The notes under the pieces: model-generated
Databases searched by the model: none
Told to the model about the DNA's origin: nothing
The model's input: only the letters and a program-made list of their open reading frames with translations
DNA from: an archaeon
GTDB taxonomy: Archaea > Iainarchaeota > Iainarchaeia > Iainarchaeales > 1-14-0-10-31-34
NCBI GenBank assembly: GCA_024277355.1
Contig: JAJRVL010000005.1
Span: 24,428-88,427, forward strand
Reading direction: 5' to 3'
Length of the DNA: 64,000 nucleotides
Translations under genes and position numbers: made by a program
Shown: piece after piece, positions 2,976 through 57,967 of the stretch
Layout: the number at the start of each line of letters is the position of its first letter
Numbering within the stretch: the stretch's first letter is position 1

Positions 2976-3437
2976 ATGAATAAGGCTCCTTTAATTAAAT
3001 TAAGTTCTGCAAAAAAACAGAGAATAAGAGATGCAGGAAAAGCCATTGATTTAATGAATAAATCAAAATCAAAGTTTGTTGTGGTTCCCCGTAATGTAAG
3101 GGAATTAATAAGGGACAAAAGAAAATGGTTTTTTATCAGAAATGAAATGGGAGAAAAAATAGGAACCGTCTCACTTGACTTAAAAAAAGGAGAAATAGGC
3201 GGTTTTTCTGTTCTTCCTAAATATCGTGGATTAAAAAATTCTCTTCCTGCATTAAAAAAAGCAGAAGGAATTATGAAAAAAGCAGGTCATAAAAAGGCAA
3301 TATTACACATTAATATTAATTCTGAAAGAACAATAAAACTTCTTGAAATTTTAGGTTATGCTAAAGGAAAGAAACTTTTTGGAGAAAAATATGGAGTTAA
3401 ATTTAACCTTATTGAACTAGAAAAAAAACTGGATTAG
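2976..3437 (+). CDS. GNAT-family N-acetyltransferase (putative)
   Basis: 153 aa; GEIGGFSVLPKYRG resembles GNAT motif A (acetyl-CoA binding). Confidence 0.45.
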   Translation: MNKAPLIKLSSAKKQRIRDAGKAIDLMNKSKSKFVVVPRNVRELIRDKRKWFFIRNEMGEKIGTVSLDLKKGEIGGFSVLPKYRGLKNSLPALKKAEGIMKKAGHKKAILHININSERTIKLLEILGYAKGKKLFGEKYGVKFNLIELEKKLD

Positions 3438-4012
3438 TTTTTTAAAACTTTTTCAATTTCTTTTAAAGTTATTTTTCCCTGCCTTATAATCTTTTTTTCT
3501 TTTACGTAATAAATTGTGCTTGGCTTGTTTTCTTCAAGTATTCCGTCATCAATTATAAAATCAACTTTTTTGCTTAAAACTTTTACTGCTTTATCAAAAG
3601 AATAAATTGGTTTTTTTCCGGACAAATTTGCACTGGTTGAAATTATTGGTTCATTTAATTCTTTTACTATTCCTAAAGCAGTTTCATTTGAACTAATTCT
3701 TAAAGCAATTTTTTCTTTGCTTACTTCTTCAGGAATTTTATTTTTTTTTGGAACAATTAAAGTTAAATGCCCTTTAAATGCGTTAAGTAATTTTTCTGCT
3801 TCAGAATTTATTTCTGCATAATTTTCTGCCATTTTTTTGTCTGCAACAATTATCAAAAAAGGTTTTATTCTATCTTGCTTTATTTCTCTGATTCTTTTAA
3901 TTGAATTAATGTCTGTTAATTTACATCCAATTCCATAACTTGTTTCTGTTGGATAAATTATTACTCCGTTTTTCTTAAGCACAAATAAAGCCATTTTGAT
4001 TTTTTTGTTCAT
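3434..4012 (-). CDS. sua5: L-threonylcarbamoyladenylate synthase, Sua5/YrdC/TsaC family
   Basis: YPTETSYGIGC motif and overall YrdC-like fold signature. Adjacent to kae1, so the two form a t6A module. Confidence 0.85.
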   Translation of the reverse strand: MNKKIKMALFVLKKNGVIIYPTETSYGIGCKLTDINSIKRIREIKQDRIKPFLIIVADKKMAENYAEINSEAEKLLNAFKGHLTLIVPKKNKIPEEVSKEKIALRISSNETALGIVKELNEPIISTSANLSGKKPIYSFDKAVKVLSKKVDFIIDDGILEENKPSTIYYVKEKKIIRQGKITLKEIEKVLKN

Positions 4013-11363: not shown

Positions 11364-11729
11364 TCACTTCTTTAACTCGTTTATTTTTTTTATTATTTCT
11401 TCTAATTCTTTTTTTGCATTTCCTTCTTCAACTAATGCAATTGAAGCTGTTCCAACTGAAATGCCTGTTTTTTCTCCTAATTCTTTTTTTGTTGAAATAT
11501 AAGAAAAAGGAATTTTTTTTTCTTCACATAACAAAGGCAAATGCATTACTAATTCCTGAGGGCTAATGTCTTCTGCAATAAAAATGATTTTTGCTGTTCC
11601 TCTTTCTATTGCTTTAGTTGTTTCGTTTACACCTATTCTGATTTTACCACTGTTTTTTGCTTTTTCAATTAGTGCTAATTGTTTTTCTTTTAGTTCTTTG
11701 CCTACGCTGAACTTAACGTATTCTGCCAT
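11364..11729 (-). CDS. rpl7ae: Ribosomal protein L7Ae (K-turn binding)
   Basis: GVNETTKAIERGTAKIIFIAED motif. GGAGGT SD upstream, with a hairpin in the leader. Confidence 0.9.
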   Translation of the reverse strand: MAEYVKFSVGKELKEKQLALIEKAKNSGKIRIGVNETTKAIERGTAKIIFIAEDISPQELVMHLPLLCEEKKIPFSYISTKKELGEKTGISVGTASIALVEEGNAKKELEEIIKKINELKK

Positions 11730-11841
11730 TTAAAATCAACCTCCTTGCAGCCATTTATGGCTGTTCATCGTCATCGGCAAAATGAGTATAAGAAAACCTG
11801 TCAAAAAAGGTTTTTAAAGGTATTTTAATGCATTTCTGTGT

Positions 11842-12780
11842 ATGTCTAAACCTAAAAGATCTGGCTTAAAAAGAAACAGATTTGTGCATCAAAAATTTCA
11901 TGGAAAACTTAATGTTTCTAGTTCTTCAAATCTTATTCCTTATTATTCTGCTGTTAAAGTTGTAACAATTAATGGCAAAAAATATGTTAAAAAAACTCAT
12001 TCAGGTTTTTTTTTGCAGCCTGATGTAAATCAGTCTAAACATGCATTAAATCCTGAACTTGCAAGAAGTTTAACAGCAGGAGAATCAATTGTTTTAAGAG
12101 GAGTTTCAAGAATTTATAACAGGCTTAAAAGAAAAGGAGTTTTCAGAAAAAAAGAAAAAAAAATTTATTTACTTAATTTTTCCAAACTTTTTAGGGTTAA
12201 TTTAAGCAAAACAAAGCCTTCAAAAAATTTTATTTTATCAGAATATATAAATGCTCCTGATGCAGGGCGTCTTTATTCTTTTGTGAAATTTGGAAAAATA
12301 TTAGGTGCTTCTCCTAAAGAAGAAAAAAAATGCATGCAATTCATAAAAAAACAGAGGTTAATTAAGGTTTTAGAAAATAAAAAATCAAGAGAATCTTTTG
12401 CTTCTAAACTTTATTCGGCTGTTGAGCAGGCTGCAAGGGATTTAGCTGTTGCAGAAAAAGAATTTAAAAAAAATGCAGCAAAAAAAGGTTTAAATGAAAA
12501 TGTTTTGTTTGATGTGTCTGAAAGAAAAGATAATGTTTTGTTTAGAGTTCCTGAAACAGATTTTAATGAAATTAAACGAGACAATTTTGTTGTTAATTCT
12601 TTTGAAAGGGGAGTTTTTAATCTTACTTTAATTGATCTTCTTTATCCTTCAAGTGATAAAAAATTTCATCCTTCAATTACAAGAACAAAAAAACGAAACA
12701 AGCTTAAGCAGTGGGAAAACAAAAATCCTAAAGAATTTTATAGTTCTGAAGGCCATCCAAAAAGAAGAAAGAAAAAATAA
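11842..12780 (+). CDS. Basic hypothetical protein, paralog A of a two-member family (see 43498..44235)
   Basis: 312 aa, K/R-rich, with no recognisable domain. Three collinear blocks are shared with the ORF at 43498..44235. It lies antisense to the surrounding operons. Confidence 0.5.
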   Translation: MSKPKRSGLKRNRFVHQKFHGKLNVSSSSNLIPYYSAVKVVTINGKKYVKKTHSGFFLQPDVNQSKHALNPELARSLTAGESIVLRGVSRIYNRLKRKGVFRKKEKKIYLLNFSKLFRVNLSKTKPSKNFILSEYINAPDAGRLYSFVKFGKILGASPKEEKKCMQFIKKQRLIKVLENKKSRESFASKLYSAVEQAARDLAVAEKEFKKNAAKKGLNENVLFDVSERKDNVLFRVPETDFNEIKRDNFVVNSFERGVFNLTLIDLLYPSSDKKFHPSITRTKKRNKLKQWENKNPKEFYSSEGHPKRRKKK

Positions 12781-12781
12781 T

Positions 12782-13795
12782 TCACTTATGTGTAAACCAT
12801 AAAACAACTTTTTTTTCTTGTATTTCATCTATTCTTGCATAACCAAAATTTTCTAGTTGAACAGTGTTTCCTTCTTTTTCATCTAAGATTTCTTTGTTTA
12901 TTATGCCGTGTTTTTTTGTTCCGTCATCTAAAACTATTTCTGCTGTAATTTCTTTTAGTATCCATTGAATTAAAGGTTTGTTTTCTAGTTTTTGTATTCC
13001 AGTGAATTCTCCAAAAACCTGTGTTTGATTTTTATTGATTACACGAAAATTTAATGCATGTTTTAATCTAACAATTTTTCCTTCATTCATTTTTTCTGAA
13101 TCTTTTTGTGAAATCAAAAAATTTTGGCTTCCTTCTTTTAATTTATAAACTCTTAATTGATCAGGGAAATCCGGATGAAGTGGTTTTTCTATTTCTAATT
13201 CAGGAACAAAATTTACATCTAATCTGATTGGATGTTCAATAAAATAATATCTGTCTGATTTGCTGTCAATAAAATGTTTATTTAAATCAACCATTTTATT
13301 AAAGTCAATTGTTACATCAGAACTTTTTGTTCCAATTTCTTTGATTATTTCTTTTATTGTTTTAGGAGAAAAACCTCTTCTTCTTAAAGCTTTAATAGTT
13401 CCTAATCTTGGGTCATCCCATCCTGAATAAATTCCTTTTTCTATTCCTTCTTTTATTTTTGAAGTGCTTAAAACCATTTCAGCTAATTTAATTCTGCCTG
13501 TATGTAATGTGTGAGGATAATTCCACCCAAAATATTCATATAAAAATTTTTGTTTTTCTGCATTTTGTGCATGTTCTTGTCCTCTTATAATTAAAGTTAC
13601 TTTCATTTCATGATCATCTATTGCTGAAGCAAAATTATATGAAGGCCATACCTTATATTTTTGATTAACTCTTGGGTGTTCTGGTTCATCAACTATTTTT
13701 GCAGCCCACCAGTCTCTTAAAGAAGGATCTTTTGCATTTAAATCAGTTTTAATTCTTAATACAGCCTGTCCTTCTTTTAATTCATTTGAAAGCAT
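12782..13795 (-). CDS. gltX: Glutamyl-tRNA synthetase, C-terminal segment (same frame as the N-terminal segment, separated by TAA plus 12 sense codons)
   Basis: EGQAVLRIKTDL...RDWWAAKIV...YNFASAIDDH matches the GluRS/GlnRS core. The segment continues through to the anticodon-binding domain. Confidence 0.85.
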   Translation of the reverse strand: MLSNELKEGQAVLRIKTDLNAKDPSLRDWWAAKIVDEPEHPRVNQKYKVWPSYNFASAIDDHEMKVTLIIRGQEHAQNAEKQKFLYEYFGWNYPHTLHTGRIKLAEMVLSTSKIKEGIEKGIYSGWDDPRLGTIKALRRRGFSPKTIKEIIKEIGTKSSDVTIDFNKMVDLNKHFIDSKSDRYYFIEHPIRLDVNFVPELEIEKPLHPDFPDQLRVYKLKEGSQNFLISQKDSEKMNEGKIVRLKHALNFRVINKNQTQVFGEFTGIQKLENKPLIQWILKEITAEIVLDDGTKKHGIINKEILDEKEGNTVQLENFGYARIDEIQEKKVVLWFTHK

Positions 13796-13831
13796 TTTTT
13801 CAAATTCTTTTAATTGTTCGTCAGGTTTTTT

Positions 13832-14473
13832 TTATCTGCATTCGCATCCTTTGTTTTCATCAATTAATTGTTTCCATTTTTCTTTTTCGCATGAACAGAC
13901 ATACGCTTTTCCTATTGAAATAACTTTTTTCATAAAAGAATAATATATTTCCATTCTGTCTGAAGCAAAAAAAGTTTCATCTGCTTTTACTCCAAGCCAG
14001 TTCATGTCTTCTTTAAATATTTGTTCTGCATTTTTAATTGGTTTTTTTGTTTTAGGATCAGTATCATCAAATCTTAAAATAAATTTTCCATTATATTTTT
14101 TTGCGTATTCAAATGAATTAAGCAAAGCCCTTGCATTGCCTAAATGAAAAGGTCCATTAGGATTTGGGGCATAACGCGTTACTACTTGTTCTTTTTCTGC
14201 CCAGTCTAACTGCATTTCTTCTTTTTGTTTTCTTTCAGGCAGTTCATTAAAATCCATTGAATTAAATTTTTCTTCTAATTCTTTTTTATCCATTGAATTA
14301 ACTGATTCAACTGTTTTGGTTATTTCTTTTATTTCTTTGCTTAAGTTTTTTGCCAGTTCTTTGTCTATTGCCATTAGTTTTGAAATTACTGCTTTTAATT
14401 CTGCTTTTCCTGAATGTTCAACTGCATTTTTTACAGCATATTTAAAAGTTAATTCATTTAATTTTTGTTTCAT
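13832..14473 (-). CDS. gltX: Glutamyl-tRNA synthetase, N-terminal catalytic segment (ends at in-frame TAA)
   Basis: RYAPNPNGPFHLGNAR carries the class I HIGH motif, and AYVCSC...C.CR is the Zn-binding pattern of archaeal GluRS. Confidence 0.85.
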   Translation of the reverse strand: MKQKLNELTFKYAVKNAVEHSGKAELKAVISKLMAIDKELAKNLSKEIKEITKTVESVNSMDKKELEEKFNSMDFNELPERKQKEEMQLDWAEKEQVVTRYAPNPNGPFHLGNARALLNSFEYAKKYNGKFILRFDDTDPKTKKPIKNAEQIFKEDMNWLGVKADETFFASDRMEIYYSFMKKVISIGKAYVCSCEKEKWKQLIDENKGCECR

Positions 14474-42028: not shown

Positions 42029-43294
<1,266 letters not shown>

Positions 43295-43497
43295 TTGAAA
43301 TACACCTCCAAAGGTAAAATTCACTTTAATGTTTGAACATTTAATTTTGTAAAAAAACACTTTAATTAAAGAAAATAGTGCTTTCTCCAATTATTATTCT
43401 TTAAAACAAAAACTATTTAAATGCTTTTATAAAGGATTCTGGATTCTTTTAACTTAAAAAACATATTTTTAAATTAAAGTTTGAAGTTAATTATTTT

Positions 43498-44235
43498 ATG
43501 CCAAAAGGAAAAAACAGGCTGCCTAAAAGCAGGTTAGTGGAAGTTCTTTCAGAGAAAAAAAAAGTGTTGGAAATAAAAAGACCTAAATCAATGGAAAAAA
43601 GCAGGATTATTTCTCCTAAACTGGCTTTAAAGACTGCAGTAACTTTTTTAAATGATGCGACAAAAAGAAATTCTAATAATTCAACTAAATTTTTTCATAA
43701 ATTAAAATCTTCAAAAAGTACAAGTTCTTTTGCTATTTTTGGTTTTGGTGGAAGAAATATTAACAGAGGAGCTTTTGTTCAAAGAATTGAATCCATATTA
43801 AAAGGAGATGATTTAACTGAAGTTAAAAGACAGTTTGAAAGACAGTTTAGTAAATTAACAAGATATTCTTTGGCTGATTTAGTTGAATTAAGCGGAAGTC
43901 CTTTGTTAGGTTCAAGAGGAACCGCTAAAGTTGAAGTTACAAAAAAAAATGGCGTTAATAATGTTGTTTTGCTTGGTGCGGCTGTTCCAAGTTTTAAAAG
44001 AAATTCTACAGTAGTTGAAAGAAATAAGCGTTTTCTTTATGAAAATTTAATTAATAATGTTAGAAGGGTTTATGGAAAAAAAACTAATTTTACAATTAGA
44101 ATTCCAAAAGAAGATTCAAGAATTGCAAGTTATTTAGAAAGCAAATTTGTTATTGAAAAAACTGAATCAATGCCTAATATTATAAGTTTAACAATAGACT
44201 TAAGTAAAACATATAAAAGAAAAAAAGGAAAATAA
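43498..44235 (+). CDS. Basic hypothetical protein, paralog B of the two-member family (see 11842..12780)
   Basis: 245 aa with no recognisable domain. It is inserted antisense between aEF1A and aEF2. Blocks MPKGKNRLPKSRLV, TRYSLADLVELSGSP and FTIRIPKED...FVIEKTESMPNIISLTIDL match paralog A. Confidence 0.5.
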   Translation: MPKGKNRLPKSRLVEVLSEKKKVLEIKRPKSMEKSRIISPKLALKTAVTFLNDATKRNSNNSTKFFHKLKSSKSTSSFAIFGFGGRNINRGAFVQRIESILKGDDLTEVKRQFERQFSKLTRYSLADLVELSGSPLLGSRGTAKVEVTKKNGVNNVVLLGAAVPSFKRNSTVVERNKRFLYENLINNVRRVYGKKTNFTIRIPKEDSRIASYLESKFVIEKTESMPNIISLTIDLSKTYKRKKGK

Positions 44236-57037: not shown

Positions 57038-57967
57038 TTATTCAATTTTTAAGTAATTTTTTAATTCCATTTTTTTATTGAAAACAACATGGTATTTTCT
57101 TATTTTAATCATTACTTCTGCTTCATATCCTAACGGAGTTTTTTCAAAATTAAGTATTTGGATTTCTGTTGTTGCTAAACCATTAGTTAACTCTTTTTTC
57201 ATTCTTTGTTTTATATCTTTTTCCAAACGTGGAAATAATTCTTCAGGATTTCTTTTTCTCCAGACAACAAATATGACTCCTGTTGCAACAAGCAGAATAA
57301 ATCCTGCTGCAACAAGCAGGAAAGGAAAATCTGCTGGTTTTTCTTTTCTGAATTCTATTCGAATATAATTTGCATCAATGTTTTTTGTATCATAAAACAG
57401 TATAAACCCGTCTTTAATTGAATATCTTTCAGGATTAATTTCAACAATTTCTCCTCTGACTTTAATCCTTAAATTTTCTTTGCTTATTTCAGGAGAAAAA
57501 TAATCTTTTATTTCCGGTTCAATTATCAAAATAAACTGCTCTTTGTTTACGTCAATTAATGCAAACCCGTCTTTTATTTTGCTTAATTCTTTTATTATTT
57601 CTCTTGAATTGTCAAAACTTAATTTTAGTTTTCCATAATATTCATCTTTTTCCATTGTGCATTGAAATGAATTTTTTACTTCTTTTAAAAAAATTAATTC
57701 TGCTTTTGCAGTGTCTCTTGTGTCTTTGTCTAAGCTGTTAATGTTTGCTTCTAATGATGCTTCAGTTGAAGGAAAAAGTTTCTTTAATTCTTTTTTGCAG
57801 TCTTTAATTTCTTTTCCTTTTTCTGTTAGTTTTCCTTCATAAGTTAATTCAGTTGAAATTATTTCTTCTTTTATTTCAATAGTAGTCGTTTTTTCTGCTG
57901 ACTCAAAATAACTAATGCATCCGCTGAATAAAAGCAGTAAAATTAATACAGGGATTATTTTTTTCAT
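57038..57967 (-). CDS. Lipoprotein-like membrane protein (signal peptide with ...LLFSGC lipobox-like motif, extracellular domain, one TM, cytoplasmic tail)
   Basis: N-terminal MKKIIPVLILLLLFSGC and a TM at LLVAAGFILLVATGVIFVVW. No recognisable domain. Confidence 0.5.
   Translation of the reverse strand: MKKIIPVLILLLLFSGCISYFESAEKTTTIEIKEEIISTELTYEGKLTEKGKEIKDCKKELKKLFPSTEASLEANINSLDKDTRDTAKAELIFLKEVKNSFQCTMEKDEYYGKLKLSFDNSREIIKELSKIKDGFALIDVNKEQFILIIEPEIKDYFSPEISKENLRIKVRGEIVEINPERYSIKDGFILFYDTKNIDANYIRIEFRKEKPADFPFLLVAAGFILLVATGVIFVVWRKRNPEELFPRLEKDIKQRMKKELTNGLATTEIQILNFEKTPLGYEAEVMIKIRKYHVVFNKKMELKNYLKIE

Follow-up and report, generated by a model that had tools for sequence, protein, structure and literature searches.

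What kind of protein is encoded antisense between L7Ae and GluRS in this archaeal genome, and how far does its position among translation genes tell us what it does? In the window (the whole stretch of DNA analysed, 64 kb), ORF A occupies positions 11842..12780 of the plus strand and encodes 312 aa plus a stop codon from an ATG start. A preliminary description of the window gave this position, length and N-terminus correctly, as it did the position (43498..44235, plus strand) and 245-aa length of a second frame, ORF B. The ORF A protein (~36 kDa) has a pI of 10.4 with 23% K+R, and ORF B has a pI of 10.6 with 22% K+R, so the basic character claimed for both is confirmed. L7Ae (11364..11729, minus strand) is divergent from ORF A, and GluRS (from 12782, minus strand) is convergent with it, again as described; the stop codons of ORF A and GluRS, however, are separated by 1 nt (12781) rather than by the 2 nt first reported. 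Few genes of the window lie on the plus strand, as was stated, and the purine skew (both GC and AT skew) changes sign exactly over 11800-12800, which is expected for plus-strand coding within a minus-strand operon array. The frame is full-length in at least five lineages at ~37% identity, with conserved motifs and with indel lengths divisible by three. ORF A is a genuine gene. No signal peptide was found in its product, which is probably cytoplasmic.

Searched exhaustively with an HMM, 1.84 billion cluster representatives yielded 7-8 true members of family A. Of 185,579 species-representative genomes, that of a Candidatus Iainarchaeum MAG (DPANN; GCA_017609625.1) is the only one with a member, and orthologs lie at the same position on five further independent contigs (L001, L003, L004, L005 and L006). 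The order L7Ae, A, GluRS is found in every member with readable context (the window and these five contigs). The lineage-specificity proposed for ORF A therefore stands: the gene is confined to a narrow DPANN (Iainarchaeota-like) group, and its orthologs occupy the same GluRS/L7Ae slot in close relatives. Profile searches of ORF A against Pfam, NCBIfam, PHROGs, PADLOC and PDB sequences recognised no family, and scans of Pfam, NCBIfam, PHROGs and PADLOC with all members of families A and B gave nothing meaningful. In particular, hmmscan of all A members against Pfam and NCBIfam, together with PDB profile searches, returned no kinase match up to an E-value of 10, and no viral relatives of either family were found in IMG/VR. 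Neither the literature on DPANN KEOPS nor that on kinases of Iainarchaeota offered anything on family A. A protein of 1442 aa (P0009, E=1.8e-17) was rejected as a false positive; it is a tandem-repeat protein whose score is the sum of 16 copies of 'GDSVVLRWTI'.

The history of the slot was followed through its neighbour: a metagenome scan queried with L7Ae instead of A recovered 20 L7Ae loci. In the more distant L014 and L027, GluRS is directly adjacent to L7Ae, and this is the ancestral state. A neighbour-joining tree built on 670 shared columns of the flanking proteins gave the topology (L003,((L009,window) 80%,(L010,L001) 100%)); because L009 groups with the window and L010 with L001, with L003 basal, A was ancestral in the clade and was later lost. 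Since that ancestor, the gene has been deleted in L009, the sister of the window (no A gene, with a GluRS-L7Ae gap of about 120 bp); replaced in L010 by an unrelated 270-aa secreted protein with a signal peptide and beta-helix repeats on the other strand; duplicated in L001 (two tandem copies with a mutual identity of 42-46%); and frameshifted in L004 and in L005/L006, the latter frameshift being seen in two separate sequencing runs. The flanks of L009 are 86% (L7Ae) and 80% (GluRS) identical to those of the window, as close as those of L001 and L003. Between these genomes, the flanking proteins share 74-98% identity and the A proteins 34-39%, and by this comparison A evolves roughly 8 times faster than its neighbours. 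ORF A is a dispensable accessory gene of a genus-level Iainarchaeota-like clade. Since it is dispensable and changes so much faster than the genes around it, a core translation or ribosome factor is unlikely. Ribosomal proteins are recognised by conserved presence and by co-inheritance with the ribosomal operons, whereas A is present in some close relatives and absent from others. The earlier argument from the translation clusters in which the gene is embedded fails, because the slot itself is variable (empty, refilled, duplicated or frameshifted). Association with RNA or the ribosome through the basic arms of the protein is possible.

The junctions of the inserted segment are well defined. 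Between the GluRS stop and the L7Ae TATA box lies the monocistronic A cassette, made up of the ORF and some 14 further nt. At the GluRS side (12781..12784), the GluRS stop TGA (minus strand, 12782-12784) and the ORF A stop are joined through 1 nt, and the window, L003 and L005 share this TGA-A-TTA junction exactly. The identity of the junction in three lineages points to a single ancestral insertion of A, and the adjacency of A and GluRS is explained by the inheritance of that insertion. An alignment of the junctions showed no hallmarks of a mobile element, that is, no terminal (inverted) repeats and no target-site duplication. At the L7Ae side, a TATA-like box (TTTTTAAA / TTTAAAAA, 11811..11818) lies 23 nt upstream of the ORF A ATG. 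Read on the other strand, the same box is the conserved promoter box of the L7Ae operon, which is present even where the A gene is not, and TAAAATACCTTTAAAAAGC is kept in filled and empty sites alike. Judging from this conservation, the box probably functions as a promoter, and its distance from the ATG suggests a leaderless ORF A mRNA, which fits archaeal leaderless transcription. The 5' leader of L7Ae (11730..11800, minus strand; GCCGAUGAC-R-AUGAAC, with a hairpin at 11748-11763 and GGAGG) is conserved in six genomes with one compensatory pair; it borders the A cassette and forms no part of it.

By modelling ORF A with an alignment of 8 sequences, an AlphaFold prediction with a pLDDT of 71.6 (65-72 over the five models) and a pTM of 0.70 was obtained; an AlphaFold (AF2) run with a 2-sequence alignment was unusable (pLDDT 39). 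Three regions are distinguished in the model. The Lys/Arg-rich N-terminal arm (residues 1-36, 11842..11949, plus strand) is predicted to be disordered (pLDDT below 50) and carries a conserved Q17-x-F19-H-G-K motif, in which Q17 and F19 are invariant in 7 sequences. The predicted core (residues 37-270, 11950..12651, plus strand) comprises a beta-hairpin (38-51), a long helix (71-97), three strands (109-134), helices (141-214) and a second beta-hairpin (249-263), and one of its predicted helices is 35 residues long. The basic C-terminal tail (residues 271-312, 12652..12777, plus strand) contains the conserved motifs PS-x-x-RTKKRNK and GH-x-KRRKK; it is absent in the L004/P0011 lineage, and its residues 298-312 have low pLDDT and are predicted to be disordered. 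A kinase fold had been guessed from the order of the secondary-structure elements ahead of any structure search.

Foldseek searches of the PDB with this model returned only protein-kinase-like (PKL) structures among the top 50 matches (ERK3, Src, Abl, Bud32/PRPK, APH(2''), LicA and NahK), and in the BFVD viral library, an independent collection, Ser/Thr kinases, a RIO-like kinase and APH ranked first. The individual matches are weak (E about 0.01-0.2, TM at most 0.36), and the best TM-scores, 0.33-0.36, are those of Bud32/PRPK (8k20_B/6wqx/7szb). An hhalign comparison of family A with an alignment of Bud32 PDB chains is collinear and not significant (P=0.056, probability 1%); it places T-x-G-E81-S on the T-x-x-E-A of alphaC, NFILSE134YI on the LYMEEIEG region (NCLYMEEIE), N248-FVV on SNMLL, and LTLID265 on VLIDFG. 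None of the curated kinase families (Pkinase, RIO1, Kdo, APH and Bud32) gave a significant sequence or profile match. The statement that ORF A has no recognisable domain thus holds for sequence profiles and fails for the predicted structure, which points to a minimal protein-kinase-like core. Taken together, the model, the Foldseek ranking and the hhalign pairing slightly favour the view that the core is a minimal protein-kinase-like domain cut short after the DFG-equivalent Asp, as in Bud32/RIO.

One competing match covers the middle of the protein. Over residues ~128-192, A gives a marginal profile match to MED31 (E=0.005) in a P-x-x-x-x-L ... C-x-x-F-I-x-x-N/Q-x-L pattern; in contrast to the four-helix bundle of MED31, the model gives A a beta-strand and the kinase hinge there. 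MED31, a Mediator subunit, is specific to eukaryotes. The match was judged to be due to chance, since it spans only 65 residues, is helical-only, involves a eukaryote-specific protein and contradicts the model.

Candidates for a full PKL catalytic set can be assigned in the core. K51 (11992-11994, plus strand, as for all residues here) is located at the end of strand 46-51 as the putative beta3 Lys; E81 (12082-12084) lies within helix 71-97 as the putative alphaC Glu; and E134 (12241-12243) is the candidate hinge residue in the motif F-I-L-x-E134-[FY]-[IL]-x-x-P. D224 (12511-12513) and N248 (12583-12585) are candidates for the catalytic loop, and D265 (12634-12636), in 'VLID', is the candidate metal-binding Asp. 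The two Asp residues are invariant, and 6 of 7 sequences keep N248. Among 232 ungapped columns of the 7 full-length members (two of them frameshift-repaired), 20 are invariant, and these include K51, E81, E134, D224 and D265; the candidates were picked with the alignment in view, so their invariance counts as support and not as an independent test. Between D224 and N248 lies a lineage-variable insert of low model confidence (residues 225-247, 12514..12582, plus strand), which holds the sequence VLFRVPETD and which P0002, P0007 and L005 lack or have in a short form. A D224-N248 spacing of 5 is confined to P0007 and L005, and in the window the spacing is as long as 24. In the alignment of members, no HxD motif and no Gly-rich loop were found, and 'ID' is followed by P, L or S instead of FG. 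The missing Gly-rich loop, the missing HxD and the spacing of 5-24 count against an orthodox active kinase.

Based on the results presented above, ORF A is a dispensable, fast-evolving and clade-restricted gene whose product is neither a core translation factor nor a detectable paralog of ORF B, and we put at roughly 50% the reading in which this product is a kinase-fold protein with basic arms. The gene was inserted antisense into the ancestral GluRS-L7Ae spacer beside the L7Ae TATA box, and it would be transcribed without a leader from the box next to the L7Ae operon. Its product would consist of a PKL core (~37-270) between the disordered Lys/Arg-rich N-terminal arm and the basic C-terminal tail. 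This core would keep candidates for the full PKL catalytic set (K51, E81, hinge E134, D224, N248 and D265) and would stop shortly past the DFG-equivalent Asp, without an activation segment and without the substrate-binding C-lobe helices. As the likeliest mechanism, ATP would be bound and then hydrolysed, or its phosphate transferred, and the basic arms would tether the protein to a polyanionic partner such as RNA, the ribosome, tRNA or DNA. The odds that A still binds ATP/Mg and hydrolyses or transfers phosphate, with its arms on a polyanionic partner, lie somewhat below even.

The alternative that survives best is that A, with its kinase-like fold or some other one, is catalytically dead, either a pseudokinase or a simple basic protein that binds nucleic acids or resembles a chaperone, and that its conserved residues are kept for structural reasons. 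The lack of a Gly-rich loop and an HxD motif and the variable length of the D224-N248 loop are what such a protein would show, and the very fast divergence, the frequent loss, the high pI and the disordered arms agree with it. On the other hand, an invariant Lys, an invariant Glu and two invariant Asp on a background of 35-40% identity are the expectation for an active nucleotide/metal site, and we give the dead protein something like one chance in a handful.

A further alternative, the one originally proposed, is that A and B are paralogs of a lineage-specific, r-protein-like factor associated with the ribosome or RNA, placed in translation operons owing to a role in translation. Both proteins are very basic, both genes lie antisense between translation genes, and orthologs of both are found in related genomes. 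Moreover, hhalign repeatedly picks a short C-terminal motif (NFVVNSF..LTLIDL versus KFVIEKTE..LTIDL). However, the similarity between the two is at chance level by every measure. For the three collinear blocks said to connect them, 98%, 67% and 17% of shuffles do as well or better. A BLASTP comparison gives E=0.84 with an alignment that is not collinear, and hhalign of the family profiles gives a probability of 0.2% (E 0.3-0.35), with the same outcome for family A profiles built from 3 sequences, from 8, and from 8 after realignment. In a test with 1000 shuffles of ORF B, z is 0.97 for the Smith-Waterman score and 0.67 for global alignment, and 17-25% of shuffles score equally well, whereas true A homologs reach z=21-49. 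Part of the C-terminal block quoted for A (VLFRVPETD) falls in the low-confidence insert that is missing from most members. The Asp of 'TIDL' in ORF B is not conserved in B's own paralog P0012, whereas D265 of A is invariant. The sequence similarity of A and B is therefore indistinguishable from chance, although a remote homology at the level of structure could still relate them.

ORF B, which lies in the spacer between EF-2 and EF-1alpha, belongs to an orphan family in its own right, with only three members in 5.8 billion proteins and no detectable kinship to ORF A. Its identity is 55% where its flanks have 68-96%, which is a turnover like that of A and less extreme. Its slot is also variable: L002 has the extra gene P0012, which is absent from the window. 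The TATA-like box upstream of ORF B is placed with the same geometry as that of ORF A, and an hhalign comparison of ORF B with Bud32 gives P=0.48. A by-eye idea that the C-terminal half of ORF B is GNAT-like was dropped; hhalign against the GNAT protein of the window gave a probability of 0.1%, and Pfam gave nothing. The slots of A and B thus both vary among close relatives, with A absent in L009 and frameshifted elsewhere, and this, together with the chance-level similarity, makes a shared translation factor improbable.

About equally improbable is a conflict or selfish gene, such as a HipA-like toxin kinase acting on GluRS or other parts of the translation machinery, or an effector of the anti-virus or symbiont-host kind. 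The kinase-fold toxin HipA of E. coli phosphorylates GluRS, and HipA-type toxin kinases have GluRS/TrpRS as their substrates. The divergence, tandem duplication, presence/absence polymorphism and pseudogenisation of A are typical of conflict genes, and A always abuts GluRS, which invites the HipA analogy. Against this, neither PADLOC nor PHROGs gave a match and no relatives were found on viral contigs; no antitoxin-like partner is adjacent, the junctions have neither terminal repeats nor a target-site duplication, and A has no signal peptide. Of the same low order is the likelihood of a hitherto unrecognised family of catalytically active, minimal kinase-fold ATPases or kinases, with basic arms like those of r-proteins, that serves as a dispensable, fast-evolving modulator of the translation or tRNA machinery in Iainarchaeota-like DPANN archaea, for example by replacing or regulating Bud32/KEOPS or by phosphorylating GluRS in a HipA-like manner.

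Less probable still is that A is a hyper-divergent Bud32 of KEOPS, partnering the standalone Kae1 of the window with a basic tail that acts like the Bud32 tail. The C-terminal tail of Bud32 reaches the Kae1 active site. Kae1 (1926-2906) and Sua5 (3434-4012) are both encoded in the window, with no adjacent or fused Bud32; Bud32/PRPK gives the best TM-scores, and the predicted minimal core of A, which ends after the DFG-equivalent Asp and is followed by a basic tail, would suit a Bud32. A search for a canonical Bud32 or RIO in the 64-kb window and in the loci of relatives, which are small parts of the genomes, found none; as only 64 kb of the genome is visible, a canonical Bud32 may lie elsewhere. 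In contrast to a Bud32, A carries frameshifts in L004 and L005/L006, diverges about 8 times as fast as the genes beside it, and lacks the HGDLTTSN/IDFGL signature save for 'ID', and its profile match to Bud32 (see above) is not significant. Bud32 is nearly universal alongside Kae1, whereas A is missing in the close relatives L009 and L010; the L004/P0011 lineage also has no basic tail. Finally, a spurious or decaying frame without function, for which the frameshifts in two lineages and the deletion in another could be cited, can be set aside, because the orthologs are conserved in related genomes, with full-length frames in at least five lineages, conserved motifs, indels in threes, the coding skew and a fold predicted with confidence.

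If the kinase-fold assignment is right, A represents a sequence-orphan PKL branch in reduced DPANN genomes, and it would show how far a minimal core can diverge and yet keep the Lys/Glu/Asp/Asp set, with 35% identity for A where the housekeeping proteins of the same genomes share about 85%. The locus is a natural case of insertion, duplication, replacement, deletion and frameshift within an otherwise frozen ribosomal super-operon, where the inserted gene apparently uses the TATA box of the neighbouring operon in reverse. It also advises caution, as being embedded in translation clusters is a poor guide to function where the slot varies. The turnover, the apparently shared bidirectional TATA box and the kinase-fold assignment overturn no expectations.

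Compared with known systems, A is most like Bud32/PRPK and RIO. Minimal atypical kinases of the Bud32/RIO type act mainly as ATPases on RNA-protein complexes. The predicted core of A would be small, bilobal and kinase-like and, as theirs does, would stop a short way past the putative metal-binding Asp with no activation segment. Further candidate similarities are a helical insert that separates the beta3 Lys from alphaC (with 'T-x-x-E' ahead of alphaC), a hinge of the form x-E-[FY]-[IL]-x-x-P/G, an 'N-[LF]-[IVL]-[VL] ... [VL]-I-D' arrangement of the catalytic loop and DFG, and a basic C-terminal tail. On the other hand, A lacks a Gly-rich loop (GAEA/GKES), an HGD motif and an FG following ID; of the Bud32 signatures (HGDLTTSN, IDFGL and the GAEA P-loop), only N248 and I-D265 have counterparts. 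A also differs in the variable insert between the putative catalytic Asp and Asn and in the long basic N-terminal arm with Q-x-F-H-G-K, and it is a dispensable, fast-evolving gene of a single clade, unlike the near-universal and conserved Bud32 and RIO. The ePKs and the small-molecule kinases (APH, the choline kinase LicA and NahK) share the fold class with A according to the Foldseek ranking; they are set apart by a TM of 0.2 or less with an rmsd above 10 Å, and A has neither the C-lobe helices alphaF-alphaI nor any sequence signature of these enzymes. HipA-type toxin kinases would share the predicted kinase-like fold class, and A adjoins GluRS and turns over like a conflict gene; yet A is much smaller, has no Pfam or PADLOC match and no antitoxin partner, and owes its adjacency to GluRS to a single insertion. 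A belongs to no named family and constitutes no new kind of system; we class it as a new variant, orphan in sequence, of a fold class that is already known.

The spacer between the GluRS and L7Ae genes, which ORF A fills in the window, is a hotspot of gene turnover, because the same slot of a close relative (locus L010, 4078-4890, plus strand) holds an unrelated 270-aa protein in place of ORF A. This protein combines a signal/lipobox-like N-terminus (MIKMKKIILIGIVLLIFLAAC) with 'ITGN' parallel beta-helix repeats. In locus L001, the family-A gene is duplicated, and the tandem copies P0002 (2885-3805) and P0005 (3845-4759), both on the plus strand, share a mutual identity of only 42-46%. Three further loci carry family-A genes disrupted by frameshifts. 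In L004 (458-1392), the gene is split into parts of 100 and 215 aa; in L005 (158-1036) and L006 (128-1006), which come from two independent sequencing runs, a common T4-to-T3 deletion lies at '...FSFV*', and the segments LIDPL...RTKKR...GSPKRRKN are still encoded in the frame that follows it. The family-A profile also matched P0009, a metagenomic protein of 1442 aa (E=1.8e-17), which was rejected since its score is the sum of a 10-residue chance match over a 16-copy tandem repeat; profile matches made up of multiple stretches therefore need checking.

The slot of ORF B, in the EF-2/EF-1alpha spacer, is also variable. Compared with the window (43498-44235), the corresponding region of L002 (8715-10735) contains approximately 1.1 kb of extra DNA, which carries the 227-aa gene P0012, a remote ORF B paralog (23-26% identity) absent from the window. 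The promoter/leader region of EF-1alpha is 83% conserved between the two. On the minus strand of the window, the mechanically called EF-1alpha ORF (42029-43390) begins at a TTG codon, adding a hydrophobic extension of 32 aa; translation almost certainly begins instead at the ATG that opens 'MADKPHVNL', near 43294, which fits the 421-aa L002 ortholog.

The GluRS gene of the window (12782-14473, minus strand) is broken by a single in-frame TAA at 13832-13834 ('...GCECR*KKPDEQ...'), where the relatives L003 and L010 encode Glu (GAA). This codon adjoins an A-run, and it is either an assembly artefact or a genuine nonsense mutation that would leave GluRS in two pieces or without activity.

Elsewhere in the window, the t6A synthesis genes Kae1/TsaD (1926-2906) and Sua5 (3434-4012) are both standalone on the minus strand, with a small GNAT acetyltransferase (2976-3437, plus strand) between them; no Bud32 is fused to them or beside them, and a search of the 64 kb found none. 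A further 309-aa ORF (57038-57967, minus strand) matches no Pfam family with E up to 0.001.

On the L7Ae side of the ORF A slot, the L7Ae 5' leader (approximately 11730-11800, minus strand) is near-invariant across six genomes, with GCCGAUGAC-R-AUGAAC followed by the hairpin CAGCC-AUAAAU-GGCUG (11748-11763 in the window) and next by GGAGG. In L004, the hairpin shows one compensatory change, from C-G to U-A. The leader resembles an autoregulatory L7Ae element of the K-turn type; Rfam gave no match at its gathering threshold.
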